DNA of 58,521 bases from Chiloscyllium plagiosum (lineage: Eukaryota). Position 1 is the stretch's first letter. Each line of letters opens with the position of its first letter. Below are positions 20,120 to 58,027 of the stretch, piece by piece. The translations under genes were made by a program, and so were the position numbers. Where the stretch lies: NCBI RefSeq assembly GCF_004010195.1, contig NC_057718.1:39415143-39473663 (forward strand), in the 5' to 3' direction. The notes under the pieces were generated by a model that was not told the origin of the DNA, searched no databases, and saw only the letters and a program-made list of their open reading frames with translations.

Positions 20120-20870
<751 letters not shown>

Positions 20871-31124: not shown

Positions 31125-31549
31125 AAGTTAAAAATCACACAACACCAGGTTATAGTCCAACAGGTTTAGTTGGAAGCACACTAGCTTTCGGAGCGACGCT
31201 CCTTCATCAGGTGATTGTGGAGGGCTCGATCATAACACAGAATTTATAGCAAAAATTGGCAGTGTGATGTAACTGAAATTATACATTGAAAAATTGATTG
31301 TCTGTTAAGCTTTGTTAAGTCTGTTAAGGCTTAACAGACAATCAATTTTTCAATGTATAATTTCAGTTACATCACGCTGCAAATTTTTGCTATAAATTCT
31401 GTGCACAATCGAGCCCTCCACAATCACCTGATGAAGGAGCGTCGCTCCGAAAGCTAGTGTGCTTCCAATTAAACCTGTTGGACTATAACCTGGTGTTGTG
31501 TGATTTTTAACTTTGTACACCCCAGTCCAACACCGGCATCTCCAAATCA
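31125..31549 (+). mobile_element. Family B fold-back hammerhead element (~190-bp inverted arms, two opposed hammerheads), 13-bp TSD
   Basis: TSD tgattcctggaca at 31112-31124 and 31550-31562; arms ~31122-31310 and 31329-31515; unpaired 3' tail to 31549. Confidence 0.9.
31425..31459 (+). ncRNA. Intact minimal type I hammerhead ribozyme motif (identical copies at 31179-31213 minus, 32391-32425 plus, 53536-53570 plus)
   Basis: CAC-CUGAUGA-A-GGAGC-GUC-GCUCC-GAAA-GC-UA-GUG: full core, 5-bp stem II, palindromic AGCU stem III and CAC/GUG stem I. Confidence 0.85.
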
Positions 31550-32219
31550 TGATTCCTGGACAGCAGCAAAGACTGGTCAAGGAAAATCTGATGGAAGAAG
31601 CAAGTTTAGTTGGGAGTGTATGATGGGCATGCTCCAATCAGCAGACTATTATATGCCATCTCCAGGCTTTCAATTTTTGTAGTTGTCTCTTTGCTTCTCC
31701 ATCACTCTATATTTTTTCAAAAAAAAATTCATAAGGCAGAAGAAAAGATTCTCGCACCTAATTAGACAGTTCCAGAATGCACTTGATATAATCACTAATA
31801 TCATCATTGAATCTGACATATATACATGATGGACTTCTTCTAGTTTCCAATCATAACTTTTGCATGTTCACCTTCCTATTATGTTTTATGTTTACATTGG
31901 TTCAATAATCCTACTTCAGCATATTTTTCCACAACACATTAAATCATCAAACTCTATAACTCCATTAGGTTTCTGTTCTTCCTATGAATCCAAAAGCTTT
32001 TAAAACCCAAACTTGGCAGCACATATTCCTACTTGATTTATCTTGATTTATTTCCTACATTGTTGAAACTTCCTGGTACCCTATGTTATGGGTTTGATCA
32101 TTCATCTTAGTTTATGAATCATGAAATCCACATTAAGTTTATCACATTATATAAAACTGTAGCTAGGAATAGCCTTTCACGGTATTTATTATAAATCATT
32201 GTAGATTGACAAAAGATGT

Positions 32220-32600
32220 GGAATTTGCTTTTAGGTAATTTTCATGGCCTAAGACATCCTAAAATGTTTGACAACCAATGATATTTGATTCGGAGATGCC
32301 GGTGTTGGACTGGGGTTTACAAAGTTAAAAATCACACAACACCAGGTTATAGTCCAACAGGTTTAATTGGAAGCACACTAGCTTTCCAATCACCTGATGA
32401 AGGAGCGTCGCTCCGAAAGCTAGTGTGCTTCCAATTAAACCTGTTGGACTATAAACTGGTGTTGTGTGATTTTTAACTAATGATATTTGAAGTTAGCAGT
32501 CAATTTGCATACCTCAGCATTTCCTAAATAGCAGTGAGATAGAAGACTAATTAATCTGTATTACTAATGTTGTTTGAAGGATAACTTTTTTGGGACACTT
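32220..32600 (-). mobile_element. Old Deu-domain SINE 3' part, interrupted by a family B element
   Basis: Reverse-complement similarity to the 3' half of 54500-54965. Confidence 0.45.
32289..32478 (-). mobile_element. Family B fold-back hammerhead element, 12-bp TSD
   Basis: TSD aatgatatttga at 32277-32288 and 32479-32490; junction tagctttc|caatcacctgatga. Confidence 0.9.
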
Positions 32601-32823
32601 AATAATCATAGTTTATCATTAAGTTATAATTTTGTTTTACTTCTTACTTCTACATTTATTTGTTGTCATTAGTTTATTCAATCTTATGCAAAATTGTAAT
32701 TGACCTCCATTTACAGAAACAACAATACCTATTTTCTGATCAACCTGTTCAGGAATACTATTACTATCACTGAAAGCCGGTATGACTTGAACCTTGGTGT
32801 TTTGTCATGGTTCTTGTGCTAAT

Positions 32824-32911
32824 GTGCCATCTGCTGGCTGCTTGAAATGACAGAAAAAGGGAGAAATACCTAATGTTGACGTCAGGCATATTAAATATTG
32901 CCACCTAGTGG
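32824..32911 (-). promoter_or_regulatory. Two co-oriented CTCF-like core motifs flanking a palindromic CRE
   Basis: Minus CCAGCAGATGGCAC (32824-32837) and CCACTAGGTGGCAA (32898-32911), with TGACGTCA at 32877-32884. Motif match only. Confidence 0.5.
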
Positions 32912-33099
32912 GTTTTAGCTAAATTGCACTTAATATGCATAACTAGCTCCAAAAACATACAACACGGCCAACTATTTATGCTTGCATTTTGGATATACAG
33001 TAGTTCCCCTTTTAGTGGTGCTCAAAGTTTTTGAAAAAGCCAAAGAGTTCAATATTTCAGGCTGCATAATTTGGTGTTTTCATATTTCTGTTATTATAT

Positions 33100-33800
33100 T
33101 GGTTTGAGCAAGTGCCAAGGTAAACCATGTTAGCCTTAACAAGTTTATTTTTTTGCAAAGTTAACTCTAAGGTTTGCCCTTTTCAGATCCTGGAACACTG
33201 CCTCTGGGTGGTCTAAATGGTCACTCCAAGTGTTACAATGAATTATTAAATCATCCAGGTAGTCTGCAAATTGCTGAGTCCAGTTTTATCTGTACTTGTC
33301 ATTCGTTGATAGGTTGCTGGGGCCTTTTTAAAGCCAAAGGACATGACCTTACATTGGCATGGGTCATCCATGATAAGAAAGCCTGAGATTTCTCTCATTT
33401 TGAGGGTCAAGGGGACTTGCTAGTTCTTGTTTCTGGAGTTGAATTTGCTGAGATAAGCCAAGAGACCCATTTTGTCTACAAAATCTTCAGTACACAGAAT
33501 TGGATAGAAGTTGTTCTAGTCACTGGATTTAGCTTTCAGTAACAAAGGTGGAGCTATCTTAATTCATCTGCTTCAGGATCAGTACAATGGCGGAGTCCAG
33601 TTCTGTCTCGGCTCAATATACTGATGCCCAGCACGTGCTGTTTCCTGCCTAGTTTGTCAGGGCTCAGCTGGTAGGGATTCAGACATAGCAGCAGGGGTTC
33701 TCTCACGTTCACATCATGCAATTTTAGTGGAGTACACCCAGATGATCTCTGCGGCTTTCTTTAGATCTCTTGAGCAGGATGGCCACAATCTCGCATTATT
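33100..33800 (-). mobile_element. Decayed Ty3/Gypsy reverse transcriptase remnant (may extend to ~35000)
   Basis: Minus-strand pieces QVPLTLKMREISGF, KVMSFGFKKAPATYQRM and YLDDLIIHCNTWSDHLDH..AVFQDLKRANLRVNFAK. Confidence 0.75.
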
Positions 33801-34569
33801 CTTTGGTCAGGGGGGTTAGCTGGGCATTTGAGTCTTTCACAATTCCAATGTTTGCGTGTTGGGTGTTAAACTGGGAGATCTTCCAATCTCTACTTCTAAA
33901 TTGACTCCTACTGGCTGTCCTTAGGTAAGTCCATGCTCTGGCAAATACACACTAGTTGACTGGGCTTTGTGCCCAATTCTATGCCATTTATACCTGAACT
34001 CCACTTGTACCAATTACAGATGCAATGAAACTTCAAGGATATTGAGTTTCCCTGTTCTGTTACTTTGGGTGAGATTGATATCCTACCTGTCCATATCTAT
34101 AGGAACATACTACGCGCAGATGGTAGTGCGGTTTCTGCAGACTGTCCTGTTGCTGGTTAGATTGATATCCTACCTGTCCAGGTCTGTACGAACACTACTG
34201 TACACAGATAGTGGTGCAGCTTCTGCGGACTGCACTGTTGCTGTTCAGCAGGCTGAGAAATTGCTCTATCTGCATGTCTATTTGGGAACTTCCCTGGTCT
34301 CCCTTTAAATTCAGAAAGGTGGCACTGGCTATCCAGACCTCCTTGCTCATCCAAAAGAGTACAAACTTGTTTTGTTTTAAAGTTTCCTGCTAAGCCTTGG
34401 ATGCTTCTATATGGCTTCTTTATCCTGGAAAGAAGCATTCTGTTGGCCACATTAAGGTTGTGCCTCTTTCACCTTCTCCTACTTCTATTTCAGCTGCTTT
34501 CTGGCTTTTTCTTGTAATTGTGCAGATTGGTTTTCGACACCTGGGAAGTATTAGCAGCACTTGAACTTT

Positions 34570-34752
34570 GGGGTTGGTTCGCTCAGTTGACGTGATGGTT
34601 GGTTTGGGCTCAATTTGCTCAACAGCTGAGATTGCCATGAAGGTCAACCTTGCCCCTCGCCTGAGGCATGGTAATCCTCAAGTTAAACCACAACCTCTCT
34701 AATGAGAGAGTAACGCTATGGTCCTCTGGGACTATGATGTCATTACATTACT
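34570..34752 (+). mobile_element. tRNA-derived SINE (other copies on minus at ~42882-43078 and ~52495-52685)
   Basis: Head ggttggttcgctcagttg and core cctgagg(c/t)(a/g)tggt..cctca(a/g)g(t/g)taa shared by the three copies. Confidence 0.65.
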
Positions 34753-35149
34753 TGTTTAAGAGGTAACAATTACTATAGGAATGGCCAGCACCATTCTGTC
34801 CCATGTACTGTATTATGGGACACCCTGGCTCAGAGTTTGCTGACTGGCTCACTAGCTCCTGCCACTCAACTTTGTGGCTGTTTGGTTTTGACAGGTGTCA
34901 TAATCACTAACTATGCATCTGCATCTATCCTGATCTCCACCTAATTCAGTCAGAAATGTGTTTACCAATTCTATTAGTGGTTCACTCCCTGCATCTGTTT
35001 TAAACTCTATGAGGTTAATGATGCCTTTGTGATCTCTTTAATTTTTCTGGCCTGATCGCAGCCCTTTTAAACCCAAGCCTCTTCCTCTGAACTACCCCAA
35101 CCTTCATAGGTGCTTCTGCCCCATGAGGACCTTCTGAAATCCTGCAAAA

Positions 35150-38100: not shown

Positions 38101-39790
38101 CAATTTGTTTCACTGTTCAAACTGCAAATTCTCTATCTGTTATTCAATTCTTTATAATGGGGCTGGTTTGTAATCTCCATGTTTATCTCCATTAATGTTT
38201 CCATCTTCAGTATACCTTCTGGAAGACAAATAGTATCATCAGCCAACGTTAGTGATTAACGTGCTGCGGTGTCTATCAATATCTTTATTGTGTATCTTTA
38301 CTGTCAATCATCTTTTCATGATTGAAGCATAAGGAAATACCTGCCCTCTTGAAATGCTCAGAACCTCCAGTGGTCAGAATCTTTTTATCAACAGTCAAAG
38401 AAGAATTTTTATGGCTCTCCCTTCTTACTACATTCTAAAGAAACAAGAGTTATTTGTATTATGCTACAGTCTTAATACCTATTTCTTTTGCTTGCAGTCA
38501 TTTTCCTGATTATTTATTAAATGTTTTTATTGCTGCAATCAATCTCCCATTTAAGCAATGGTTTTTGGTATGTCCAATCTTATTACAATAGAAGCATATT
38601 ATTTTCTTTACATCAGTTTTGGTTGTTGCCTTTATTACTTTGAAATCTTTCTGTTTGATCTCTAAACCTAGTTCTTGTTGCATTTGCAGATATTTATTCC
38701 TTAAATTTCTGCTAACTTCTAACCGTCTATGGGAAATATCAGAATTGCTGTTTCTCAGATCTATGATCCTTGATGGTCTTTTAAATAAGAATTTAGGTTT
38801 ACAGGAATGCTGTTTTGAATTCTTCCATGATCATAAATCTGAAAAACTTACTTTAATTTCAGTGATTGAAACCATGGATTCCACCACATTTCTTTTTCTC
38901 TCGCAAATTCCACAAAGGTCCGATAACATTTCTTTCTTGTCATTCTAAATTTTAATTAATAAGCTTCAAGGACAATCCGATAAGCATTGAGTGTTTGTTT
39001 TTTTTTAACAGTTTCATGACCTGAAGATTGTTCTTCTGATAAGCGTATCATGGTTATACCTGTCAAAACACTATGCAACAAAAAGGTTCAAACATCTTTG
39101 AGCAACTGTGTTACTTTTCGAATGAAGTAAAATATTTTTCAATTCCATCCTCATAAAATTTAGGCATTAACATAAATTTTTCTTTAAATTAAATCCCTCA
39201 TTGGAATCAGAGTCTTCCTCTGCCATTTTTTGTCCTTCTTTACCCAAGGCTTTTTTCTGGTCAATTCTTGTTGCCTAATTTCTCTATCTCATTTGAGTTC
39301 AAGCTTCTTCAAATTTATTTCCTTTTCTATTACTCTCAATTTTTCTCTTTCCTCCCCTGTCTATTTCAAGCTTTCTTTTTTGTAATTCTCTCTCATCTTT
39401 CCTTTTCCTCTTCAATTTCCTTTTCTCTCTATTTATTCTCTAACCCAAATTTATTTTTTAAATTCTTAACTGTATCATCTCAATTTCATTTTTCCCTTCT
39501 CTTAATTCTAAATGTTAGATTATCATTTACAGTATCTCTTCCTTACAAGTCCCTGCACTTAGTTCTATTTTCAATTTATCTGCAAATAATCTCAAATTAG
39601 TCTGAGTCAAAAGTTTCAAGTAAGTCACTTTTATGTCCTCTACTCCCAGAAAACTCTTCAGACGTTGTGAAGACTCCACCACAACATTCCTATGATATTT
39701 CCAACACCTACATGTGCCTATTTTTAAAGAAAACAGATAAATAACCCACTTAAATTCAATGAACTTAAATCCTGGTCAAAAGACCACACT
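35150..39790 (-). mobile_element. Decayed Gmr1-type Gypsy LTR retrotransposon, internal region (gag-PR-IN-RT-RH)
   Basis: Minus-strand order: Zn knuckle CFYCNKIGHTKNHC (~38555-38600), protease-like IDTAA (~38270), integrase KHFYWPGLPRDVVTFC (~37490), KEIKSDPVSNFMS and SQGALE..QTLKNMIR (~37240-36960), GPYQIKKK (~36630), RT FITKIDLLNRYWQIPLT (~35960), RNase H-like (~35200-35380). Confidence 0.8.
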
Positions 39791-40600: not shown

Positions 40601-40802
40601 CTCTGGGTACATTACCTGGCATCTCTCCCAGGAGCATAGGTAATTCCTCTCTGTTTCATTTTGCTCTGATTTTGAGATATTAATTTAACTTCTCGCATCT
40701 CTTGCTGCACATTCTCATTCATTCTTCCAGTCTTTTTTCTTTTCCTTTCTCTCTCCTGAAGTTCCAGTCATATTTTTAAGATTTACCAGCTCTTTGGCAA
40801 GT

Positions 40803-41731
40803 TATAGAGTCATAGAGATGTATAGCACAGAAACAGACCCTTTGGTCCAACTCATCCATGCCAACCAGATATCCCAAACTAATCTAGTTCCACCTGCCAG
40901 CACCCGGTCCATATCCCTCCAAACGTTTCCTATTCATATACCCATCCAGATGCCTTTTAAATGTTGCAATCGTACTAGCCTCCACCAATTCCTCTGGCAG
41001 CTCATTACATACATGTACCACCCTCTGCATGAAAATGTGGCCCTTTTTAGGTCTCTTTTATGTCTTTCCCCTCTCACCCTAAAACCTATGCCCTCCAGTT
41101 TTGGCTCCCCACCCCAGGGAAGTGACTTTGTCTATTTGTCCTATCCATGTCCCTCATGATTTTATAGCCCTCTCAGCCTCCAACACTCCAGGGAAACAGC
41201 CCTAGCCTATCCAACCTCTCCCTATAGCTCAAATCCTCCAACCCTGGCAACATCCTTATAAATCTTTTCTGAACCCTTTCAAGTTTCACAACATCCTTCC
41301 GATAGGAAGACCAGAATTGCACAAATTATTCAAACAGTGGCCTAACCAATGTCCTATACAGCCGCAACATGACCTCCCAACTCCTTTACTCAATACTCAG
41401 TAAAGGAAAGCATACCAAATGCCTTCTTCACTATCCTATCTACCTGCGACTCTACTTTCAAGGAGCTATGAACCTGCACTCTAAGGTCTCTTTGTTCAGC
41501 AACACTCCCTAGGACCTCACCATTAAGTGTATAAATCCTGCTAAGATTTGCTTTCCCAAAATGCAGCACCTCACATTTATCTAAATTAAACTCCATCTGC
41601 CACTTCTCAGCCCATTGGCCCATCTGATCAAGATCCCGTTGTAACCTTCTTCGCTGCCCACTACACCTCCAATTTTGTTGTCATCAGCAAACTTACTAAC
41701 TATACCTCTTGTGCTCACATCCAAATCATTT
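40803..41731 (-). mobile_element. Young 5'-truncated CR1 LINE
   Basis: ORF 41390..41623 (MGQWAEKWQMEFNLDKCEVLHFG...) and tail atagagtcatagag; same family as 46897-47735. Confidence 0.92.
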
Positions 41732-42775: not shown

Positions 42776-42876
42776 GGAACAAAACACTAATTGCTGGGAA
42801 AACTCAGCAGATTTGGCAGCATCTGTGGAGAGAAAGCAGAGTTAATGTTGCAGGTCCAGTGACCTTTTTTCAGAAC
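42776..42876 (-). mobile_element. Family C short element with a decayed hammerhead
   Basis: Minus GUU-CUGAAAA-A-AGGUC-ACUG-GACCU-GCAA-CA-UU-AAC followed by the family body. Confidence 0.65.
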
Positions 42877-43671
42877 ACTACAAGTTAAAGTCATCATAAC
42901 CTTTTCAGACCATAGGGCTGCCTCTCTGGTGGCAGCTTAACCTGAGGCCACCACACCTCAGACAAGGGGAGAGGTTGAGAAAGAGAGTTCTTCATGGCAA
43001 CATTGATCAGTGCGGGCATCGAACCCATCCTATTTACATTACTCCACACTGCAAGCCAGCCATCAAGCTAACTGACACAATTGAGCATTGGGGTTGCTCA
43101 ATCACTGTAATCAATTTTCATTAGCACACAATTTCTCTTACTTCTTTAGTCCTTTATAACCTGGGTTTTGAATTCATAAAGAACTTGTGTAGTCTTGAAT
43201 TCAGTAAGTTCTCACTTAAAATACGCTGAGTTGATGTGTTTTGCTTTAACGTCATTAGTAAAACATGAACATGGTATATTGATTTATGTTTCTTTTAGTT
43301 TAACGCTGGTTGCCACAGACTTTTGTGTCTTGGCCTGCCTGTGCTCAAGAATTCATCCCACAATTCTGCTCCCACACTCAGTCCTGAAGTTCCTTTGTTC
43401 TTCCAACAGTTCCTGCCCTGCCCACAGTCCCTCTTTAACAATCACCTCAAGTCCTGCTTCTGTTCTTCACTTTAAAGTTTCTGATATCTGCTTCTAACTA
43501 TACACCGGTCTGAACTTGCACTGATATCCTAGGCTCCAATTAGTGTCTGATTTGGCCAGCACTTCCTGCACCAACCAACATCTGCCACTAGATGGGACCT
43601 GGTCAATAACAGTAACATTTCATTAGGTAAGTTTAAGTTTAACAAGTATTTACAGTTCATACTTTTATATT

Positions 43672-44090
43672 TTGGAGGTGCTGGTGTTGGACTGGGGTGT
43701 ACAAAGTTAAAAATCACACACCAGGTTATAGTCCAACAGGTTTATTTGGAAGCACTAACTTTCAGAGCACTGCTCCTTCATCAGGTTAAAAATCACACCT
43801 TCATCAGGTGGTTGTGGAGTAGAAAGTGAGGTCTGCAGATGCTGGAGATCAAAGTTGAAACTTTATTGCTGGAACAGCACAGCAGGTCAGGCAGCATCCA
43901 GGGAACAGGAGATTCGACGTTTCGGGCACAGGCCCTTCTTCAGTATAAGAACATAAAATGTTTTGCTATAAATTCTGTGTCTTATGATCTTATACTCCAC
44001 AACCAGCTGATGAAGGAGCAGCACTCTGAAAGTTAATGCTTCCAACTAAACCTGTTGGACCATAACCTGGAGCTGTGTGATTTTTAACTT
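43672..44090 (-). mobile_element. Older family B fold-back element, 12-bp TSD, with a nested family D copy
   Basis: TSD tacttttatatt at 43660-43671 and 44091-44102; decayed hammerheads on both arms. Confidence 0.85.
43822..43943 (-). mobile_element. Young family D hammerhead element
   Basis: Minus strand starts CUGAAGA-A-GGGC-CUGU-GCCC-GAAA-CG-UC-GAAUC; one mismatch to 57872-57993. Confidence 0.88.
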
Positions 44091-45096
44091 TACTTTTATA
44101 TTGTATTCTTGTAAAAGAATATACCTAGAAAGGAATACCAACACCACACGCATGGCAAAAATTGGGTTAGTACTGAGCAAAGACAACAAGAAGTATAAAC
44201 AATAGTTTAATCACTAAAAAGAAGGCCTGGAAAGATACATGGAAGTATAACACCTTGGCATGAAAGTAAATTGTTATTTATAGGTGGGATATTGGAACCA
44301 TTCAACTGATAAGAATAACAAAGATCCATATCACATGAATACCATTAGTAACTAGGATAAGGCAACGCTGATAAAGACAGGGAAGTTAAACATCTCTACT
44401 GATAAACCTATAACATAGGAATATTTTAAGAATGAAAGAATAAGAGAGATGAAAGGAATATTCAAATATGAAAATGAAACATATTTATTGAAAAGCCTTT
44501 ATCGAAGGATTATTTTCAGGTTGAAAGATTGAGGAAAAGAAAGGATATCCAGAAATGAGCATAAACATCATAAATAAATTGACTGATAAAAGTTCACACC
44601 CTCATAAAGAAATCTTCATGGAATAATTAAGGAATAATGTTAAATGACACGGCATCACATGAAGATGGGAGAAACCTATACAGAGGGTTAACACCTACAT
44701 TTTCAAAGGACATGTCCAAATAACACAAGAATAAGACCCATTCCCTGAAATTTCAGCATACTGTTGTAAGGATCTTCAGGTAATAATTCTCCAAAGATAT
44801 TTTCTCCAGCCAGCAGAAGATATCTTGCTTGCTCAGGGCTTTAAGGTGAAACTTTATTTTAAATGTTGATAGATATTCCATTGTTAGACATTGTTAGATA
44901 TTTTGTTCTTAGTTGTTAATAAATATTCTTAGATATGCTTGATTAGGTATAAGTGACATGAAGTTTGATTCCATTAGATTTGGCATTAATCTTTTGATAG
45001 TTTTTGGCACAGCAGACTACATATACATAAAACACATTGCTTGTTAATTTTTGTAAAATTGTAAAATAAAATTAAAACTGTAAAATTGGTAAATCA

Positions 45097-45228
45097 AAAT
45101 AAAAACAAAGAACTGTGGATGCTGTAAATCAGAAGAAGGATCACTGGACCTGAAACGTTAACTTGCTTTCTTTCCACAGATGCTGCCAGTCCTGCTGAGT
45201 TTCTCAGCAATTTCTGTTTTTGTTTCAG
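45097..45228 (+). mobile_element. Family C element: inverted 3' tail followed by a hammerhead-starting body
   Basis: aaaacaaagaactgtggatgctgtaaatca (reverse-complement homologue of the 14149-14181 tail), then cagaagaaggatcactggacctgaaacgttaac. Confidence 0.7.
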
Positions 45229-45606
45229 TTTAAGAAATCATCTCATTTATTTTTTGTTTGTTACAAACCCTGATATTTTAAATGGGAAAGTTCATTGTCT
45301 GAGGAGAGATATCCCAGACCCTTAAAATATTGGGCATGTTTATTGCATAGCTATATTAAAATTAAATAGGCTATTTAAAGGAAGGTAGCATTCTCAGGCA
45401 GCTTATTCTCTCTTGGGATAGTTATCTAAGTCCTACAAACCCAAAACCAAGTGATTGTGGAATTGATTAGCTTGAATTCAACTGACAGAAGTTTTCAATG
45501 AATTATCTTGATCAAAGTTACCTCTAAATTAGAGTTGGAAGCTATAAATCAGTTCATTATGACTGAGAGAATGGAATCAGTAGAGAAAGTTTCATTCTAT
45601 ATATTA

Positions 45607-45764
45607 TGATTTGGTGATGCCGATGTTGGGTGTACAAAGTTAAAAATCACACAACACCAGGTTATAGTCCAACAGGTTTAATTGGAAGCACACTAGCTTT
45701 CGGAGCTAGTGTGCTTCCAATTAAACCTGTTGGACCATAACCTGGTGTTATGTGATTTTTAATT
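45607..45764 (-). mobile_element. Family B fold-back element (near-perfect hairpin centred on the ribozyme core), 12-bp TSD
   Basis: TSD ttctatatatta at 45595-45606 and 45765-45776; centre cactagct-ttcgg-agctagtg. Confidence 0.9.
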
Positions 45765-46134
45765 TTCTATATATTAACTCTTCAAGACTGGGAGATGTAC
45801 AATGGGTAGCTCACATGTCCACTCTTCCTCAAAGTAAATGCTCTGCCAAGAAAAGCTGAAAAAATGTGCTGACTCTCAAGTTCAATGCTCTGTTCAAGAA
45901 TACTCAGACATTTTGAGGTGACTTGGCTGCCTACATGGACTCTGAAATATTAAAGGATTACTGTTGACAGATGGGTCAAAAGGAAACTTGTTAGAAACTT
46001 GTCAATCTGGTCGCTATCATGAGAGATTTCACTACACAACATATGGATATTGCATCAAGGTAGCTGCGTTAAGACTTACCTAACTTTGGCACCATTTAAA
46101 ACTGGTGAGCTGTCTTTTTCCTTAATGGTCATGA

Positions 46135-46138
<4 letters not shown>

Positions 46139-46172
<34 letters not shown>

Positions 46173-46182
46173 TACATATATG
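46139..46182. repeat. (TA)n microsatellite
   Basis: Direct read. Confidence 0.95.
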
Positions 46183-46399: not shown

Positions 46400-47930
46400 C
46401 TAGCTCCAATTTGGAGGGTACCACATCTCACAATGGTATGAGACACCCTTTCTGGACTGTAGTGTAAGATCCTGTTACAGTCTAGGAATTGAAACCTCAA
46501 GTTCAGAAGACCTATGACTTGTTCCTGTATGGTGCTGATCAAAGTGCGAGCAGTATTGTATATTCACTCTGCGTCAGTCTAGAGGTTTTTTAAAGGTATC
46601 TTGAGAGCCATGTTTGGAGGGGGTAACCCCTGTTTCCCAGGAACCATCCCTGTATGGTCTAAAGACTTTGAAAAGAGCTAGGAACCTCTGATGTCTCAGT
46701 ATGTAATAGTCATAGCAACTCCCAGGATTTTTTGCTGCAACCTCCATAAATTTGCATCCATATAATATATAATTGAATATTATGGACTGGAAGCCTTTTC
46801 TGTTGACAAATCCTCCACATTTTTAATAACATCATGGAGGCAATAGCACCCTTCAGCTGGAGGAAGCCAGTGATGGTGAAAAGTCCCAGAGCCCTAGTTG
46901 ATGGGCCAATGGGCCGTTGAGTGGCTGATTGGGTTTAATTTAGTTAAATATGAGGTACTGCATTTTGGAAAGTCAAATCAGGACAGGACTTATGCATTTA
47001 ATGGTAAGGTCCTGGAGAGTGTTGCTGAACAAAGAGGCCTTGGATTGCTGGTTCATAGTTCTTTGAAAGTGGACTCTCAGAATAGTGAAGAAGTCGTTTG
47101 GTATGCTTGACTTTATTGGTCAGAGCATTGAGTATTGGAGTTGGGAGGACATGTTGTGGCTGTACAGGACATTGGTTAGGCCACTTGTGGAATATTGTGT
47201 GCAATTCTGGTCTCCCTCGTATAGGAAGGATGTTGTGAAACTTGAAAGGGTTCAGAAAACATTTACAAGGATGTTGCCAGGTTTGGAAGGTTTGAGCTAT
47301 AGGGAGAAGCTGAATAGGCTGGGGCTGTTTTCTCTGGAGCATCAGAGATTGAGGGGAGATCTTATAGAGGTTTATAAAGTCATGAGGGACATGGATAGCA
47401 TAAATAGAGAAGGTCTTTTCCCTGGGATGGCAGAGTCCAGAACTAGAGGGTATAAATTTAGGATGAGGGGGGAAAGATTTAAAAGGGACCTAAAAGGCAA
47501 CTTTTTCACACAAAGGGCGGTGCATGTATGGAATGAGCTGCCAGAGGAAGTGGTGGAGGCTGGTACAATTACAATATTTAAAAGGTATTTAGGTGGGTGT
47601 GTGAATAGGAAGGGTTTGGATGGATATGGACCAGGTTCTGGCAAATGAGACTACATTCGTTTAGGATATCTGGTCGGCATGGATGAGTTGGACCGAAGGG
47701 TCTATTTCCGTGCTGTACTTCTCTATGACTCGATGACTTCCATTATCACTGGAGAATGATTTAAAAAGATGTGCTCTGGGAAAAATGCCATGTTTATGAA
47801 TCAAAGATTGGGAGTTACCACACAAGGCCCCAGTTGCTCCTTGAAAAAAATCACTGGCATAAAATTTCAGGGCAGCAGTGACCTTGATGGCCACTCTGGA
47901 TGGGAATGCCAAAACCGTCCTTCTGAGTGC
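46400..47930 (-). mobile_element. PIF/Harbinger (HARBI1-like) transposase pseudogene split by a CR1
   Basis: VAIKVTAALKFYASDFFQGATGALCGNSQS (ORF 47661..47912), then past the CR1 ITGFLQLKGAI, FVNRKGFQSI, NPGSCYDYYIL, GWFLGNRGYP and EQVIGLLNLRFQFLD..LHYSPERVSHTIV. Confidence 0.8.
46897..47735 (+). mobile_element. 5'-truncated CR1 LINE
   Basis: ORFs 46898..47110 and 47085..47648 (LYRTLVRPLVEYCVQFWSP...LRGDLIEVYK...FFTQRAVHVWNELP). Confidence 0.93.
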
Positions 47931-48247: not shown

Positions 48248-48566
48248 GGGGCGACACGGTGGCACAGTGGTTAGCACTACTGCCTCACAGCGCCAGAGAC
48301 CTGGGTTCAATTCCCGACTCAGGCGACTGACTGTGTGGAGTTTGCACATTCTCCCCGTGTCTGCGCGGGTTTACTCCGGGTGCTCCGGTTTCCTCCCACA
48401 GTCCAAAGATGTGCAGGTTAGGTGAATTGGTCATGCTAAATTGTCTGCAGTTTTAGGTAAAGGGGTAAATGTAGGGGAATGGGTGGGTTGCGCTTCGGCG
48501 GGTCAGTGTGGACTTGTTGGGCCGAAGGGCCTGTTTCCACACTGTAAGTAATCTAATCTAATCTAA
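48248..48566 (+). mobile_element. Full-length, young HE1-type V-SINE
   Basis: A-box tggcacagtgg, B-box ggttcaattcc, V-domain and (TAATC)n tail; CpGs retained. Confidence 0.92.
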
Positions 48567-49436: not shown

Positions 49437-49798
49437 ATAGAATTCATAGATTTCCTACAGTGTGGAAATAGGCTATTCAGCCCAACAAGTCCACACCGAC
49501 TCTCTGAAGAACATTCCACCCATACCCATCCCTACCTAACCCTGTAACCTTACATTTCCCGTCATGGCTAATCCACCTAACGTACATATGCCTGAACACT
49601 TTGGAAAATTTAGCATGGCCAATCCACCTAATCCCAACATGTATGGACTGTGGAAGGAAACCAGAGCACCTGGAGGAAACTCACGCAGACATGGGCAGAA
49701 TGTGCAAACTCCACACAGTCACCTGAGACTGGAATTGAGCCCAGCTCCCTGGCACTATGAGGCAGCAGTGCTAACCACTGAGTCACCATGGCACCCCC
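49437..49798 (-). mobile_element. HE1-like SINE nested in the RTE
   Basis: Head ggtgccatggtgactcagtggttagcactgctgcctc (minus) and V-domain. Confidence 0.85.
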
Positions 49799-49844
49799 AT
49801 ACTTCTCAAGGGTATTGAGGTGGCTCAGAGCCATAAAGAAGATC

Positions 49845-49925
49845 AGGTAGTTGGTTTGCTCGCTGAGCTATTGGGTTTGTTTTCAGACTGTTTGACACCA
49901 TCATCAGCAAGTCTTCGGTGAAGCT
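49845..49925 (-). mobile_element. Decayed Penelope pLTR end
   Basis: Minus cttcaccgaag..ctgatgatg..tctgaaaacaaaccc..agctcagcgagcaaacc resembles 1005-1090. Confidence 0.55.
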
Positions 49926-51474
49926 TTGAAGAATGATGCCAATGAAGACATAGAAAAGGGTCGGGGCAATGACACATCCATGCTTGGCGTCTGCCTTCAC
50001 TTCATAGGATTCTGTCATATTGGCATCCATAAGGACTGTTGCTGACATCTTTTTGTGGAGGAGATGGAGGACATTGATGAATTTCACTGGACAGCAGTCT
50101 TTGTCAGGGTCTGCCGTAGCACTTCCTGATTGATTGAGTCAAAAGTCTTGGTTAGGTCAGTGAATGCTATGTGGAGTGATTGATGTTGTTCCTGACATTT
50201 CTCTTGGATTTGCAGACTGGTAACAATCATGTCCATAGTTCCACGGTTTGGCTGGAAGCCACACTGGCTTTCAGGAAGGATGTTCTTAGAGACTAGGAGA
50301 AGGCACCTAGTGAGGATTCTTGTGATGATCATCCCAGCAATGGAAAGTAGGGAGATTGCTCAGTAGATCCCACAGCCCATCCTTTCTATTTTCTTGAAGA
50401 TGGTGGTGATAGCAGCATCCCTGAGATCAGCAGGGATTTCCTCTTTGTGCCAATTTTTCAGGAACAATTGATGAAAATGTCGGGTAAGCTCTGCTCCTCC
50501 CAAGTTTGAAAATCTCTACTGGAATCCAGTCTACTTCTGTGGCTTTTCCGTTCTTCATGTGTCTAATGGCAATTTCACTTTCTACCAAACAACGTAGGCG
50601 TTCAAGATCATGTTTAATGGGGAATTGGGAGACTTCCTCAAACACATCCTTGTCGATGATTAGATTACAGTTTAGGATTTCTTTGAAGTGTTCTCTCTAT
50701 CAGAGGCTAATGTTTTTTTCTGTCTCCATGACAATTCATACATTTCAGGTTCCAAGATTGAGCTTGACTTTGATTTTCAGATCAAAGCTGGATGAGTCCA
50801 CTGGATGTGGTTTTCCAGTCAGGTTGGTGACAGAACAGACTATTTTTCAGGCTCATTTTCTAACCCATCCCCCATGCAGGGTGAGCAGAGTGATCCTGTA
50901 AAGAGCTGCTCAGTCATGAAGAAAACTTCCAAAATGCTCTCCTGTTCCTATTCCAAGAGTGAAATGACTGTGTCAAACTTCACCCCCAACATGCTGGTCC
51001 AAAGCAAAGAATTTTCTGATCTCACACTCTAATCCCAGACAGCTCTCGCCAATCACCAGATGGTTTCTATTGTGGATGGGGTGGTTTGAACTCCTCTGGG
51101 TAGATGACTTGTGTGGGACATTTTTTAACATAGGAATGGCAGCATTCATCCACTGTTGCAGCCGTTGATATCACACAAATATCTTCTAGCAGGATCACTG
51201 TTGAGGACTTGTTTTGGATTGTTCTTTGTCTGGTTCCTCCCCTCTGACCTTACCATCATGGGCGGCCCTTCCAGGATTCAAAACTTCTGACAGCATCACT
51301 CTCGCAGTCAACAGAGAACTCAAGTCTCTGCATTGCAGCAAAGTGGCAATCCACAGAAAGATAGTTCAAAGAAATTCAATATGAAACACAAGAAAAGCAA
51401 TTGTATAAATTAGTATCCTTTTACAAATTTCTTAAAACATAGAACAAAAATGGAACTTCACTGTGTGACAGAAG

Positions 51475-51672
51475 GTGGTTCGCATGAGGAAGTGATGGAT
51501 GTGGGCACAGTTACAATATTTAAAAGACACTTAGATATGTACATGAATTGGAAAGGTTTGGAGGGATATGGGCCAAAAGCAGGCAGAAGGGACAAATTTT
51601 GTTTGGGATTATGTTCGGCATGGACTAGTTAGACCAAAAGGTCTGTATCCATGCTGTGTGATTCTATGAATC
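51475..51672 (+). mobile_element. CR1 3' end
   Basis: gaggaagtgatggatgtgggcacagttacaatatttaaaagac...tgattctatga. Confidence 0.8.
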
Positions 51673-53241
51673 TATCACATTGAGCAGTAGAGTTATTTGG
51701 AGTCATGACTCTCAGGTGTGCATTAAGCTAGTACCGAGCAATGCCAAAAGCCTGGGAATGATTTGTCACCCTTCCCTGCCATATGGAGATAGCCATCCTA
51801 AGTTTTCAAACATTGAAAAGAGAAACAGCAGCTAGTCAGCTAGTTATATCGTGAATATTCATTAATGTCAATAATTAATTCTGGAACTAAAAACATAGCA
51901 AGTGGAAGTTACCGACAATAAGGAGCATCATTAATGATGATTCCCAAAGGATTAAAATCAAAACTAATTGTGTTAATTAGTAACAAGTGCCAAAGAAGAA
52001 GCTTTGTTTAAAAAAACATATTTTTGTTCTGGCTGGCTTTGCTCTCCCTTCCCCAGTTCATCATCTATGACAACTAATTACTCTTTGCCATGGATAAAGC
52101 TACGTGTGTGAGCAGACCACAGAGCAACAACAAGGCTGGTGAAACCCTATTTTGTAACTTTCTTAATCTAGTTATCAAATATGCTAAATCCAAGCAAGCT
52201 AGACCCCAGCCTCTTGTATTTTGAAGTGTCTTACCTAATCTTCAGGGGTGCAATGTGACAGGAGAATATGAGGCTATCTAACTGCCAAGCATAAACATAA
52301 TCAAGTATTCTTTTGCATTCAAATTAGGTATCATTCCAAATTTCTCAATTTAAATTGAGGCTCTGCCACATTGCATCAGAAATCTAAGGGCTAGGCTGTC
52401 TCAAGGTTTTTCAAAGATAAGTTAAAGTTGCGCAGCTAAATTCTGCTGTATTTTGCCAGGCAGTCTAACTCTCTTTTTTTAATATTTCCTGCTCCAGGTC
52501 ACCATACTCTTGATTTCTCATTAGGGACAGATAACTGGTAGCAGTGATTTACCCTGAGGATCACCACACCTCAGGTAAGGGAAGAAGTTGAGAAGGAGAA
52601 CCCTTCATGATAACCTCAACTAGTGTGGGAATTGAACCTAGGTTGTTGGCATCGCTCTGTATCACAGACCAGCCATCCAAGCTATTACTCAAGAATGTCA
52701 TTCAAAATAATACGAAAAAGTACTGATGATAGGCATTCCTTTGGCAGCTGCAATCATACTGCATGATTTAGATAAAGAAGTTTACGTCAGGGAATAAGAA
52801 ATATAAATACAACTAAAGCTGAAACGTTTGCTTCCCCTTCCAATTAAAATGCATATTGTGTCAGGAGATCCCTATCTTCGTTTTAGGAGAGACATACCTG
52901 CTATTTCAAGGTAACTACTAATAAACAGAAATAGTGCTTTTCATAGGAGGTGAAAATGTGTACAGCATTTGGATTTGATGTCACTACATCCTTCCAGTTC
53001 TTTACAAAGGACTTCCACAAAATCAGAAAATATGCCTTCTATGTCTATTCAAGAAAATGATAAAAACTCTGTTTGAAGGTGCAATACTATTACCACATGA
53101 TTTGTGGAAGGGAGCTTACACTCAGGCTGCAGGTGAGATTCCCCAATTTAACATAGTTCAAGATGGGATACTGCAAAACATTAAACTCCTGGCTAAGTAT
53201 TAAAGAATTGACTCTCTTCTTCATTTTCCTGCCCTCTTGTT

Positions 53242-54416
53242 CGTCATGACGAGGATAATTCAAAACCTGATCCCTTCCCTTGTGGATACCCTTCCCCGAG
53301 ACTCAAATGAATTTTTGTTTCAAAAGGAGTTAGTTTAACTAGGGTTTCTTGAGTTAACGAAGCATAAGTTTATTAATTACTAAATACAATTAATAACATT
53401 ACATATAACACATAGATTAAAAATAGACAAAAAGATAAACTTTTGAAAAGCAGACATACAGACCATTCTCTGAGTTAAAAATCACACAACACCTGGTTAT
53501 AGTCCAACAGGTTTAATTGGAAGCACACTAGCTTTCACCTGATGAAGGAGCGTCGCTCCGAAAGCTAGTGTGCTTCCAATTAAACCTGTTGAACTATAAC
53601 CTGGCGTTGTGAGATTTTTAACTTTGTACACCCCAGTCCAACACTGGCATCTCCAAACCATTCTCTGAGTTGCTTGCAAAGAATGGATGGACAAATGTTG
53701 CACCCATTGCTTTGGAGATTACTGGTAGCGTTGATCTTGGGAGGTGAATAGTCGATTCTAAAGTTCTTACTTTTGCAAATTAGTTGAGATTCTGTTCTTG
53801 TCATTTCTTTTGACTGTGACTGAATTCGAGTATTCAGGGCATGAGACAGTGCTTTTGTTGCCCTATTTCTTTTTGTCTTGTGTGGTAGCTAGCTGACTTC
53901 TATCAGAGTCTTCTTATACCTTCAATGTAAGAGTGACTAGGGGATAATGTTTTCACTCGGACCTTAGTAGTGCACTAGTGTTCAAATGCAGGCTAATACA
54001 CACCATTCTCATAGTTTGCCACCACATACAAGTGTATTCAGTTCCACTAGCAGAATCCAGTAGAGTTGAAACCGTTTTTTGAACCCTGTCCTTGTGTATT
54101 CTCCAAAGTAAAAAACATAAAATGTGATTGCAGTTTGGGACATTATCCGGGGGGTGGGGGGGTGTTGTCAGCCTTTTGTTATCTATGTATCACAAGAAAT
54201 AACAATCTAGTCTGTTTTGACTTAGTTGCCCCTTTTAAGGGTTGTTGTTTAAAATTCACTTAACATCTTTAGGTATGACATTCTATGGATCACTCTGTCT
54301 CCAGACAACCACGTAATATATCCATAGCCATTTTTACTCTCTCTTGGAAACACATTTTGGAAAGATAAGTTCAAAATGTTCTTAGCACTCTGGAGCTCTG
54401 ATCCATGATCATGACA
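53242..54416 (-). mobile_element. Possible solo LTR hosting a family B insertion
   Basis: Terminal inverted (c)gtcatga...tcatgaca and a polyA signal on minus (tttatt ~53369); no TSD seen. Confidence 0.35.
53477..53656 (+). mobile_element. Family B fold-back hammerhead element, TSD up to 15 bp
   Basis: accattctctgagtt at 53462-53476 and 53657-53671; junction tagctttc/cacctgatga sharing one c. Confidence 0.9.
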
Positions 54417-54499
54417 CATAAAGTAAAGGTATTGCTAGGAGACAACAATATCAGAAATTCAGGGTACATTGGATGGCACTAATCAGTGCTTCATGTTGT

Positions 54500-54965
54500 T
54501 AAGTTGCAGATCCTTATTTTCTGAGTCAAAAATTATGGGTTTAAGTCTCAGTCCACAAACTAAAACATATAACGCAAGCTTGGACTTTATTGCAGTCTTG
54601 AGGGAGTTCTACACCACTGGACTTACTGTCTTTCTGATGAGATGGCAAAGTGCAGTTTCACCTTTCCTGGCAGACATTTTAAAATTCCCATGATACTAAT
54701 TGAAGAAGAGCTGGGAAGAGTGATTCCTGATGAAGGGCTTTTGCCTGAAACGTCGATTTCGAAGCTCCTTGGATGCTGCCTGAACTGCTGTGCTCTTCCA
54801 GTACCACTAATCCAGAGTCCTTTACAATATCCTGACCATCATTTTAACATTCCCCAAAAGTATAAAAAAGACTACATTTCAAAAGTAATTCCTTTGCTAT
54901 GAAGCATTTTGCAAATTCCTGAGGTTACAAAAGGCCCATGAAGAGTGCAATTTCTTTCTTTCTTT
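54500..54965 (+). mobile_element. Deu-domain SINE (SacSINE1/AmnSINE1-like) with an L2-type tail
   Basis: gagggagtt...gtctttctgatgagat...aaaattcccatgatactaattgaagaagagc...cctgagg..aaaggc..tgcaatttctttcttt. Confidence 0.65.
54722..54815 (+). mobile_element. Family D element beginning with a near-intact hammerhead, inserted in the Deu-SINE
   Basis: 54722-54759 reads GAUUC-CUGAUGA-A-GGGC-UUUU-GCCU-GAAA-CG-UC-GAUUU. Confidence 0.8.
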
Positions 54966-55139
54966 AACATGACCCGAAATATTAAAATGGACACGTGGAT
55001 ATTTGGCACACAAGCATTGATTCAAAGCAAACTTCTTGGATGTTTGTACACTTTTACAGAAAGTGTCTCTAAACTGGGTGAGAGACTATGGTGTACATGA
55101 GGATGGTTCAGGGATGAAGGAAGAGGCCTCATGGAGTCT

Positions 55140-55320
55140 TGAATATGGCACTGGAGATGCTGATGGCAGAGATACAGAGATTCTGTTTCTGGAGATGGAA
55201 GGAGGTCTCTGAGACAAATAATATGGTGATGTGGGAGGAGATCATGAAGAACATCACAATCAGCAGCCATGCATCCAGAACGGCACTCCAGTGCTGCAAG
55301 AAATAATCAATTTAACATGG
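55140..55320 (+). mobile_element. Decayed Myb/SANT-like Harbinger accessory ORF fragment
   Basis: ALEMLMAEI...MWEEIMKNITISSHASRTALQCCKK resembles the W..IA....RT..QC.KK trihelix motif. Confidence 0.55.
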
Positions 55321-55429
55321 AAAATCAAAGGAAGATCTCAACTTATAAACAGACTTTTCAATAACTCACTACAATCAGCATCACTGTTATGATGGCACCT
55401 TGCCTTTAAAAGAGATCATCTTTAATGCG

Positions 55430-57545
55430 CTGCGTGCAAAGGCGGATTTAACTCATTTGAGAAAAGCAAGTGATCAATTAATTTGGAAGACCAGTATGGA
55501 ATAGTTCGGGACAAATTATGTTTAACCAGCTAGATTTTTTCATTAACAATGACAGAAAGAGTTGATGAGGGTAATACTGTTGACATGGTATATATAAACT
55601 TTAAAGGGCATTAATAAAGCACAATATAACAGACGTGTAAGCAAAGTTAAAGCTTGTGGAATAAAAGGGACAAAAGAAACATGAATATGAAATTGTCTGA
55701 AGGACAGGAAATATTTTTCTGACTGGATGGAATAGTGTTGTAGTCCTGCTTGTCCTGATATGTATGCTGGGAAGAATATTTCCCATAATGCTGTTAAACT
55801 GATGGGCCTCAGTTAATAGCACTCTTCTGAAAAATGGTAGAACACCTGCAATTCTTTAGTTCTTTGGTATCATCCCTGAATTTAAGGAAGAGAGGGTGCC
55901 AAGTGGACAGGGTTAGTGTGGCTTGATAGAGTGCCAGGCAAGAAAGGGTGTCAAGTGAGTTGGATGCTAGATAGGTAGATTCCCAGACTGAAGGAGGCAA
56001 AGAGATCATATGTGACACTAAACTGGGTGGTAGTATGTGCTGTGAAGAGGATGCTAATAGGCTGTAGGGTGACTTGGGCAGACTGGCCGAGTGGCTAAAT
56101 ACTTGGCCAATGCAATATAATGTGGATAAATGTGAGGATATCCAGTTTTGTCACAAAAACAAGAAGGCAGATTATTATTTGAATGGCTGTGGTTTAGGAA
56201 AAGGTGAGGTGCAACAAGACCTGGGTGTTATGGTGGAACAGTTGCTGAAGTTTGGCAGCAGGTAGTGAGGAAACCTAATGGCCTGCTGACCTTCATAACG
56301 AGAGGTTTTGAGTATCGGAGTAAGGATGTCTTGCTGCAGTTATACAGGGCCTTGGTGAGGCTACACCTTGAGCATTATGTGCATTTGGTCTCCTAGTCTG
56401 AGGAAGGACACTCTTGCTTGAGGCAGTCCAGCGAAGGTTCATCAGTATAATTCCCAGGATGGCAGGACTGACATATGAGGATAGATTGGTTCAACTGGGC
56501 TTGTATTTGCTGAAATTTAGAAGAGTGAAGGGGGATCTCATAGAAACATACAAAATCCTGACAGACTGCACAGGTTAGATGTGGAAAGAATGTTCCCGGT
56601 ATTGGGGAATTCCAGAACTAGGGGTAACAGTCTAAGACTAAGGATTAAGCTTATGAGGAAGAATTTCTTCCCTCAGAGAGCTGTAGAATTCTCTCCTGTT
56701 AGGACCAGTTCATTAAATATATTCAAGAGAGAGCTGTACATGGCCCTTGCATTTAAAGGAATCAAGGAGTATGGGGACAGGACAGGAATGGGATACTGAG
56801 ATTGCATCATCAGCCATGAACGTATTGAATGGTGGTGCAGTCTCGAAGGGCCAAATTGCCTCCTCCAGCACCTATTTTCTATGTTTCTATATGATTAAAT
56901 ATATTGGATGTCAGGGTGGGTGGGGAAATTGGGTCTATCAGGGCAAGGTTAGCAGTGGTGTCGGGGGCTAGCAAATGGGGGTGGTGGGACAGGGGAGACA
57001 ACCAGGTCCAGATTGGAGGCTAGGTTATGACTCAGTGGCAGGGGTGAAGATCAGGTCCATATTATGAGAAAGGGGAGCAGATCCAGAACAAAGGGGAGTA
57101 ATGAATGTGGACCAGTGCAAGGGTGTTGGGTCTTGGGAGGAGAAAAGGGAATATCAGATCAGGATCTGGGATATTGGATAGATATTGGGGGTGTGTGAGG
57201 TAGGTATTGTGTCATGTATGTATAGAATAGGCTCAGATTATGTATTTAATAGTCAGATTATATATTTAATAATTCTAACTTTTTCTGAGTAATCATTTAC
57301 TTATTTTTACTGGAACTCTCCAAACCCTCTGATTTAAATGGATACACAGAGAATGGTAAGGGCATGGAATGCCCTACCTGCTAAGGTAGTCAACTCAGCC
57401 ACATTAGGGAGATTTAAACAATCCTTAGGTAAGCTCATGGATGATTTTGGGATAGTGTAGGGGGACAAGCTGAGAAAAGTCCACAGGTCGGCGCAACATC
57501 AAGGGCCGAAGGGACTGTTCTGCACTGTATTGTTCTATTCTATCT
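55430..57545 (+). mobile_element. CR1 fragments (~55430-55715, ~56015-56892, ~57345-57545)
   Basis: ORFs 56074..56265 and 56581..56799 are CR1 RT and C-terminus, with typical 3' tails. Confidence 0.8.
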
Positions 57546-57869
57546 ATTTACTTTTGTGTGTAGAGGAATTGCCCAGCAGGATCTTTAATTTTCCAGAGCA
57601 ATTATTTCAGAGTCTGTTGAGATGGGGATTCCATAGGGTCCTCATGCACAACTCCCATCTCCACTGGAATAATGACTGTCTGGCCATTGGAAAATCCAGG
57701 TTGATACCTGCAGCTTTTGTGTTGCTTGTGTAGATTTCAGTATCAGTAGAAGATTGGTGGTGATTCTAGACTGTAGATACATGAAAATATCAACAACTAA
57801 TAAGACCAACTAATATCAAGGTCCAAGGTCCAGGAACACAGACCTTCAGTTTTGTGAGAAAATCACGAG

Positions 57870-58027
57870 GAGAAAGTGAGGTCTGCAGATGCTGGAGATC
57901 AAAGTTGAAACTTTATTGCTGGAACAGCACAGCAAGTCAGGCAGCATCCAGGGAACAGGAGATTCGACGTTTCGGGCACAGGCCCTTCTTCAGGCCCTCA
58001 TTCCTGTTCCAGCAATAAAGTTTCAAC
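57870..58027 (-). mobile_element. Young family D hammerhead element with a 24-nt inverted arm
   Basis: Hammerhead core on minus at 57961-57993; 58004-58027 is the exact reverse complement of 57904-57927. Confidence 0.88.

Follow-up and report, generated by a model that had tools for sequence, protein, structure and literature searches.

Hammerhead-bearing repeats of the shark Chiloscyllium plagiosum: very probable stumps of four Penelope-like families, many of them likely run-off copies of an uncleaved capped leader

Minimal hammerhead ribozymes are carried by the pseudo-long terminal repeats (pLTRs) of metazoan Penelope-like elements (PLEs), in which they form several covarying families and lie mostly on truncated copies (Cervera and De la Pena, 2014, PMC4209133). 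The published accounts cited here were accessible in part, and statements taken from them hold for those parts; in that of PMC4209133, no shark was found and the ends of the stumps are not mapped. Most PLE insertions are 5′-truncated and have a single terminal repeat (bioRxiv 10.64898/2026.07.22.740005). In vitro work on PAc, a Poseidon element of Anolis, revealed two internal start sites of the reverse transcriptase (RT) that bound the tail, with both target strands being cut and extended; RNA reaching about 55 nt beyond the start sites was needed, and unprocessed, uncleaved RNA was the main template (Frangieh et al., 2024, PMC11167929). Here, we analyze a stretch of 58,521 nt of Chiloscyllium plagiosum, referred to as the window, together with a sample of the genome. 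A preliminary description of the window, with notes covering positions 31,125-58,027, had listed 13 short hammerhead sites and a longer element at 1-1134. In the open-access literature, neither a shark-specific description of PLE hammerheads nor an account of run-off stumps bearing a cap-derived G was found.

The repeats are, with high confidence, stumps of four protein-coding Penelope-like families, designated A, B, C, and D, and many of the short ones are likely run-off complementary DNA (cDNA) of an uncleaved capped 5′ leader, a reading that we hold with moderate confidence. As an element class, pLTR stumps of PLEs that carry minimal hammerheads are already known biology. Each of the 13 short sites, as well as the longer element, was found at about the place given in the preliminary description, and they fall, as it had stated, into four families. 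Positions within each family are numbered from the core C3, taken as 0. The majority sequences of all four families contain a minimal type I hammerhead with CUGANGA, an extra nucleotide, G10.1-C11.1, GAAA, a palindromic stem III, UH, and stem I. The type I core, the extra nucleotide between 9 and 10.1, the G10.1-C11.1 pair, and the palindromic 15.2-16.2 are those of the minimal hammerheads in PMC4209133, and the presence of several covarying families per genome, with most motifs being single on truncated PLEs and dual motifs lying on opposite strands, also agrees with that account. Stem III was correctly described as a 4-nt palindrome, which is AGCU in family A and ACGU in families B, C, and D. 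Stem I is CAC/GUG in A, AUUC/GAAU (young form) or AUUC/GAUU in B, AGUU/AACU in C, and CCA/UGG in D. According to a by-eye reading of the alignments, the stem I pairs changed in a compensatory way between B and C (C-G to U-A and U-A to G-C) and between D and a fifth family, E (C-G to G-C). The claim of one fold per family holds for the four majorities, but most window copies outside the strict set described below are incomplete, and three of the stems listed earlier are decayed or composite forms and not family stems. Thus, GAUUC/GAAUC is a composite that no window copy holds, its G being the junction G before AUUC; AGGUC/GACCU is a decayed form of GGGUC/GACCC, and GUUACC/GGUGAU is a decayed form of GUUACC/GGUGAC.

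The hammerhead motifs are genuine, since a strict descriptor for type I (stem I of at least 3 bp, stem II of at least 4 bp) yielded four matches in the window, all from family A (31210 on the minus strand; 31428, 32394, and 53539 on the plus strand), against a mean of 0.02 across 50 order-1 Markov sequences. The genome sample consisted of 120 stretches of 10 kb at round coordinates of large contigs (1,148,052 non-N bases); the first 574 kb of this sample had six strict matches, compared with 0-1 in 10 controls. The core and stems were intact in 6/27 spanning copies of A, 40/89 of B, 2/23 of C, and 2/9 of D. The sample contained 265 insertion events (A 33, B 152, C 65, and D 15), that is, one per 4.3 kb, which is close to the earlier figure of about one per 5 kb. 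Extrapolation gives, very roughly, 0.8 million insertions genome-wide, most of them decayed, whereas 4,000-9,000 motifs were reported for coelacanth and Xenopus (PMC4209133). An Rfam scan of the window with E values up to 10 matched no hammerhead model and returned only microRNA models on fold-backs. When two copies were co-folded, the structure of minimum energy was not the double hammerhead, a result that says little because the core pairs are non-canonical. Within one copy, stem III would close a two-base loop; by this structural argument, made also in PMC4209133, a monomer cannot fold actively, and cleavage is predicted to require a dimer formed through the palindromic stem III. In an inverted pair, the hammerheads occupy opposite strands, which makes cleavage by the stumps unlikely.

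Each family could be followed into a coding frame. Among the longer copies of the random sample, those of families A (L058 and L052), B (L064, L061, L066, L056, and L029), and C (L031 and L057) run upstream via an untranslated region (UTR) into a GIY-YIG C-terminus, and the GIY-YIG frame of family D precedes the hammerhead within the window itself. Loci anchored on the open reading frame (ORF; 24 aligned for A, 22 for B, 30 for C, and 20 for D) showed the order ORF end, UTR, hammerhead, about 85 nt, and an optional tail. The RVT_1 domain was matched in family A loci L131/L135 (E 6e-6, under the cut-off) and in the family B locus L273 (E 4e-9), and the family B loci L273 and L124 contain both RT and GIY-YIG. 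RT and, at the C-terminus, GIY-YIG thus lie in a single ORF upstream of the pLTR in families A and B; the GIY-YIG end only was reached for C, and GIY-YIG with the thumb region for D. Such a single ORF, as well as the CX4CxxC linker found between RT and endonuclease in A and B, is shared with endonuclease-bearing PLEs (Craig et al., 2021, PMC8557442; Arkhipova et al., 2013, PMC3846280). The linker was also present in a C-like frame of L142, the family of which is not certain, and was not seen in family D. A CX2-5CxxC-type linker marks Neptune and occurs also in Nematis (PMC8557442); judged from the linker and other motifs, A, B, and C are probably Neptune-type and D Poseidon-type. Family A has 142 longer relatives, which are mostly RVT_1 proteins of 830-1000 aa, many with GIY-YIG. 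Protein searches of the genome gave 20,641 (A), 66,632 (B), 29,229 (C), and 113,303 (D) first-look candidates, which are not copy numbers. The earlier attribution of the minimal type I hammerheads with palindromic stem III to Penelope pLTRs spread by Penelope RT/GIY-YIG was borne out, with GIY-YIG being reached in all four families and RT in two.

Several observations concern the sampled relatives of these families. Long open frames listed for family B proved to be assembly gaps between inverted arms and were discarded. Gaps of 1-4 kb are often located between the inverted arms of long family B insertions (L151-L162), and full-length copies of this family are consequently under-assembled. Family E, which is related to D, has stem I GCA/UGC (L153, L147, L294, L306, and L208), with a Poseidon-type RT frame in L153. 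In L142 (5460-6384), a short UTR and then a hammerhead end of type B come after the C-like GIY-YIG frame; this arrangement may represent a chimera or a further subfamily.

The relation of the repeat to the autonomous element was clearest in family A. A search with the N-terminus of its ORF gave only 1,004 candidates, as would be expected with heavy 5′ truncation, and 30 loci were looked at. A same-strand hammerhead and tail end lie about 298 nt before the N-terminal query in 8/30 loci, and three more loci start past the core, the tail being present in 11/30. In 10 inspected loci, the tail ends at the ORF start MTTIDT, with ATG in nine and GTG in one. Thus, the unit of about 130 nt is both the 3′ end of family A insertions and the 5′ leader of the autonomous element, so that the partial-tandem pLTR, in which the 3′ end is repeated as the leader of a full-length ORF, was found in this family. 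The unit comprises a TATA box (-40), the hammerhead (-3..+31), a poly(A) signal (+38), a first end at about +85, and the tail end at about +121, followed by the ORF ATG. This differs from PAc, whose ORF begins in stem II and contains the RT starts (PMC11167929). About 2% of the reads of run X20, a single-cell poly(A) library of a related species, were compared with the family A leader. Poly(A) tails followed +54 in 343 reads and +60 in 398 reads; these positions are downstream of the AWTAAA at +38, and the two genomic 3′ ends, that is, the priming sites, lie farther downstream. The family A poly(A) signal is therefore functional in the related species. Family A carries AATAAA or ATTAAA (its positions +54/+60 correspond to 1132-1138 of L252), and one flank recurs in 122 X20 reads; dispersed family A copies could supply poly(A) sites to host transcripts.

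The ends of the stumps are not random. In the random sample, 5′ ends at -12..+2 outnumbered those at -160..-13 by 29 to 3 in family A (95-fold per base), by 22 to 4 in C (54-fold), and by 68 to at most 27 in B (at least 25-fold); before the last figure was calculated, 17 family B copies first scored as short (14 of them in the random sample) were reassigned as long copies of older subfamilies. A 5′-end peak of family D at -2 consisted mostly of long family E copies and was dropped. The family B boundary at -4 recurs in X20 with mixed flanks (190 reads). Upstream of the boundary, TATAAA is located at -40 in A and at -33 in C; no TATA box was found in B. Initiator (Inr)-like sequences, recognized by the Inr consensus, are TCATTC in B and TCAGTT in C, each with A at -4. 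A TATA box plus Inr in the pLTR is also known from endonuclease-bearing PLEs (PMC8557442; PMC3846280). Where the exact match of a copy begins at the predicted start A, this base was preceded by G in 6/6 copies of family A (-8), 11/22 of B (-4; 9/12 among unpaired copies), and 3/5 of C (-4), which gives 20/33 after pooling, compared with 23/91 at upstream truncation points (Fisher p 5e-4); other start positions showed no excess of G. An extra G at the 5′ junctions of full-length L1 and SVA copies has been read as the reverse-transcribed cap (PMC2912911).

Two peaks, separated by about 35 nt, were found among the 3′ ends. In 56/63 inverted pairs, a tailed arm is combined with a tail-less arm, and two tails were found in only one pair; a target duplication of at least 8 bp flanked 33/61 inverted pairs, compared with 2.4% of controls. 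One tail per pair together with target duplications indicates that each pair is one insertion made of two differently primed cDNAs. The hallmarks of PLEs, a 30-40 bp tail on one arm, an inverted 5′ copy, and target duplications, were thus all found, as was the heavy 5′ truncation described for endonuclease-bearing PLEs (PMC8557442; PMC3846280). Neither a fixed 5′ boundary with G nor polyadenylation upstream of the priming sites is described in the accessible parts of those accounts.

These features may be combined in the following scheme. The RT/GIY-YIG protein would cut the target with a stagger of 10-17 nt, and each of the two target ends would prime at its own internal start site (about +85 or +121). 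Synthesis of each cDNA would proceed 5′-ward through the intact hammerhead and would halt at the cap, adding G, or would stop earlier, for example, at the foot of stem II; less often, a jump, a circle, or a read-through template would carry it on into the 3′ UTR and ORF. Both cDNAs would then be joined head to head, or one of them would be lost. The two RT starts bounding the tail, the extension of both target strands, the hammerhead upstream of the RT starts, and uncleaved RNA as the template are shared with PAc (PMC11167929). If the requirement for RNA beyond the start sites is valid here, only the 5′ leader, which continues into the ORF, would have the full binding site. Priming in the leader would yield cDNA of 90-130 nt through the uncut hammerhead to the cap, and priming with run-off would explain how long the short copies are, why their boundary is fixed and bears a G, and why most copies lack an ORF. 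We consider it reasonably likely that run-off at the cap accounts for the short class, whereas a multi-copy mRNA template was proposed for PAc (PMC11167929). Long copies need a jump to the 3′ repeat, a circle (as proposed in PMC4209133), or poly(A) read-through, and the data do not choose among these.

The order of features in family A (TATA box, start, poly(A) site, and priming sites) is U3-R-U5-like, which is an analogy to long terminal repeat (LTR) retroelements and not membership among them. The minus-strand strong-stop DNA of LTR retroelements is a short cDNA that is primed in the 5′ leader and runs off at the cap. Here, unlike in those elements, the primer is target DNA, and for this reason the failed product would integrate. 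Tentatively, the stumps may be target-primed strong-stop cDNA made in a capped, uncut mRNA leader, which would normally jump to the R region that carries the hammerhead and is repeated at the polyadenylated 3′ end, with the stumps being failed jumps in which the cap G is visible.

A number of observations weigh against run-off at the cap. The start positions are predictions from sequence, with a fitting TATA box in families A and C and none found in B. The numbers of copies with G are low and come from all loci pooled, and the positions were picked after the end peaks had been seen. A second group of family A ends at -4..-2 has G in just 2/19 copies. A target duplication could be identified for four G copies; in three of them the G is external to it (with 2-3 other extra bases), and in one it is internal. 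Run-off does not explain the segments that start inside or past the hammerhead (16/53 in A, 69/186 in B, and 43/75 in C), and a duplication of at least 8 bp was found in only 20/141 short unpaired copies. Family D gives no support from its ends. The link from leader to ATG comes from family A only, a same-strand 5′ leader being reached in 0/30 family B RT loci; likewise, none of the poly(A) sites listed from X20 belongs to family B, and the poly(A) reads of family A could be host read-through transcripts.

It is possible, though in our judgment doubtful, that the stumps are ordinary 5′-truncated 3′ ends copied from long templates, either read-through tandem RNA or ribozyme-made circles, and that the pile-up of their ends stems not from the 5′ end of an RNA but from the folded ribozyme, where the RT would pause, snap back, or use microhomology. 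PLEs regularly show heavy 5′ truncation, inverted arms, and tails (PMC8557442), tandem templates or circles have been proposed (PMC11167929; PMC4209133), ends also cluster at the 3′ foot of stem II (10/115 in family C at +22), and the boundary coincides with the first stem I base in B, C, and the second group of A. However, a pause would be expected 3′ of the fold and not after the RT has unwound it, and a G confined to a single position in each family is not predicted by pausing; the two arms often have nearly the same 5′ end point, and in family A the G-bearing peak (-8) is 5 nt beyond stem I. Alternatively, the template would be the 3′ product of ribozyme cleavage or RNA trimmed by a 5′ exonuclease up to a protein-bound ribozyme fold. 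The main boundary at stem I agrees with such processing, as do the family B ends around the predicted cut (12/270 at +28..+31, compared with three at +22..+27). Yet another 10 ends lie at +32..+37, a CpG at +27/+28 can halt alignments, most short copies hold the whole uncut hammerhead, trimmed or cut RNA would have no cap to supply the G, and no pile of read ends was listed in X20 for A or B, a poly(A) library that cannot show 5′ ends. We therefore regard a processed template as highly improbable.

The preliminary description had taken the short units to be separate SINE- or retrozyme-like families, which would be transcribed, cut by their ribozymes, and re-mobilized in trans. Most copies are indeed ORF-less with a common 5′ boundary, some, such as 31119-31553, retain the TATA box, and pLTR-derived retrozymes are known in vertebrates, including one chondrichthyan (bioRxiv 10.64898/2026.07.22.740005). 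In the sample, two minor loop variants of family B (four copies each) and three variants of A, including the GUC loop of the window, have no ORF-reaching copy. However, the GUC loop occurs in full-length family A leaders (L239, L249, and L260), the common B variants all have ORF-linked copies, and the inversion junctions differ from copy to copy. Every family continues into a GIY-YIG frame, and the family A repeat is the 5′ leader of full-length copies. No head-to-tail hammerhead array exists in the window, and in the sampled segments a same-strand neighbor within 300 bp was rare (A 1/53, B 7/186, C 2/75, and D 0/16; 10/330 in total) and mostly not abutting. Neither a Pol III A/B box pair in any family majority nor a tRNA/7SL/5S-type Rfam match at the window sites was detected. 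With same-strand neighbors this rare and Pol III boxes absent, the stumps show neither the tandem arrangement of retrozymes nor the Pol III head of short interspersed elements (SINEs). Like animal non-LTR retrozymes, they are non-coding, bear a type I hammerhead, and are related to PLE pLTRs; unlike them, they are dispersed or head-to-head, minimal, and decaying, whereas retrozymes form head-to-tail tandems, mostly with canonical hammerheads, and are expressed as circles (PMC7229834; bioRxiv 10.64898/2026.07.22.740005). No circular joint was listed for A or B in X20, although a poly(A) library of a related species is a weak test for circles.

Copy decay also bears on this alternative. The G12 base is the general base of hammerhead chemistry. 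It lies within a CpG in all four families and differs in 26% (A), 15% (B), 50% (C), and 41% (D) of copies, like other CpGs. Among the spanning copies pooled over all loci (A 108, B 185, C 64, and D 54), the median mismatch was 0.065 (A), 0.035 (B), 0.117 (C), and 0.037 (D) at non-CpG core positions and 0.056, 0.041, 0.156, and 0.065, respectively, at downstream positions; the selection of spanning copies favors a matching core, and the downstream positions include subfamily variants. No excess conservation of the core was thus found in these copies. Since the core mismatch is close to that downstream and G12 decays as a CpG, the copies decay neutrally; the hammerhead fold is kept in master lineages, presumably by selection. 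Taken together, the existence of separate non-autonomous families is quite improbable. The two outcomes that the preliminary description had named as telling against itself, a lack of core excess and copies being ends of autonomous Penelope elements, were largely what was observed, with the difference that the truncation points are not random.

The individual window copies illustrate these features. In the family D element at 1-1136, two 3′ ends, both of which contain GIY-YIG and a hammerhead, are joined head to head as an inverted pair with a 13-bp target duplication; its left arm is tail-less and extends about 70 bp past the window edge, and its right arm is tailed. It is probably Poseidon-type, with no Cys linker seen and a GIY-YIG match (PF01541) at E 2e-4, just under the cut-off; one arm carries G5A, and both show CpG decay in stem III. 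A 189-aa open frame at 17-586 (minus strand) is the end of the PLE ORF with the GIY-YIG domain and continues into the hammerhead. Family A is represented by inverted pairs. That at 31119-31553 (arms -110..+89, minus, and -109..+124, plus; 13-bp target duplication) has an intact hammerhead (C3 at 31210 and 31428) and a TATA box in each arm. The plus-strand hammerhead at 31425-31459 reads CAC, CUGAUGA, A, GGAGC/GCUCC, GAAA, GC, UA, and GUG, and the hammerhead consensus predicts a cut after 31456. The pair at 32286-32478 (+21..+120, minus; -7..+82, plus) has an intact hammerhead at 32394 and a 12-bp target duplication, and that at 53473-53661 (+21..+82, minus; -3..+121, plus) has one at 53539 and a 15-bp duplication. 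A further pair at 45602-45769 (+16..+125 and +24..+87; 12-bp target duplication) lacks the CUGA core in both arms. The decayed pair at 43671-44091 has nested in it a family B copy (43821-43943, minus) with an intact core and without the 5′ strand of stem I; insertions of PLEs into PLE ends were also seen in L150 and L153.

Family B stumps are located at 9054-9154 (plus; +21 to +120, 15-bp target duplication), where CUGANGA is absent, and at 11057-11254 (minus), with the core at 11147, G before AUUC, and the first stem I pair broken. The 5′ end of the latter is joined to a piece of about 100 bp (11156-11254) that matches 10063-10161 (97% identical, inverted, about 1 kb away); the stump and the copied piece both lie within one 15-bp duplication, which looks like a template switch onto local DNA during insertion. 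An older-subfamily stump at 54723-54807 (plus; -4..+80), preceded by G, has G10.1-U11.1 and a U-U mismatch. At 57867-58027 (minus), a tailed young-subfamily stump, in which the 5′ strand of stem I is missing (copy at 57871), is followed by a short, internally deleted inverted arm; its host site is the RT remnant of a long interspersed element (LINE). Family C stumps occur at 14041-14171 (plus; from +11, CUGANGA absent at 14063), at 42781-42876 (minus; -3..+92, decayed core), and at 45097-45231 (plus), which has the core change U4A (45129) and a short inverted piece before it. In addition, a decayed D/E-like pLTR remnant (CUGAUGA followed by a D-type downstream block), absent from the earlier list, lies within a LINE RT fragment at 49850-49930 (minus).

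Other content of the window includes an abundant SINE-like family (2125-2416, 7248-7441, 22058-22373, 48300-48560, and 49445-49796), which we take to resemble the shark HE1 SINE, and LINE fragments at about 8000, 12850, 40800-41680, 46900-47740, 50084, and 58020, with RVT_1 matches in the two tested. A GC-rich region at 20100-20700 has a CCTCC repeat and open frames, one of which was tested and had no Pfam match; this region may represent a promoter or a first exon of the host. The CCHC zinc-knuckle-like frame at 38513-38830 (minus), with a weak Pfam zinc-finger match, is probably a gag-like remnant of an LTR retroelement.

The value of the stumps lies in their ends, because the regeneration of the PLE pseudo-LTR and the role of the hammerhead are open questions in the field. 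According to the accessible text of the respective papers, no obvious mechanism of pLTR regeneration is available (PMC2377424), and the later steps of insertion were left unvalidated (PMC11167929). The estimated 0.8 million insertions allow these steps to be read statistically, from the fixed 5′ boundary with its cap-like G, through one priming site per target end, to polyadenylation upstream of the two priming sites. In repeat annotation or ribozyme scans, such stumps would be wrongly counted as SINEs or as functional ribozymes. If the proposed jump of strong-stop cDNA is true, it would explain pLTR regeneration, and the hundreds of thousands of stumps would be a fossil record of its intermediate.

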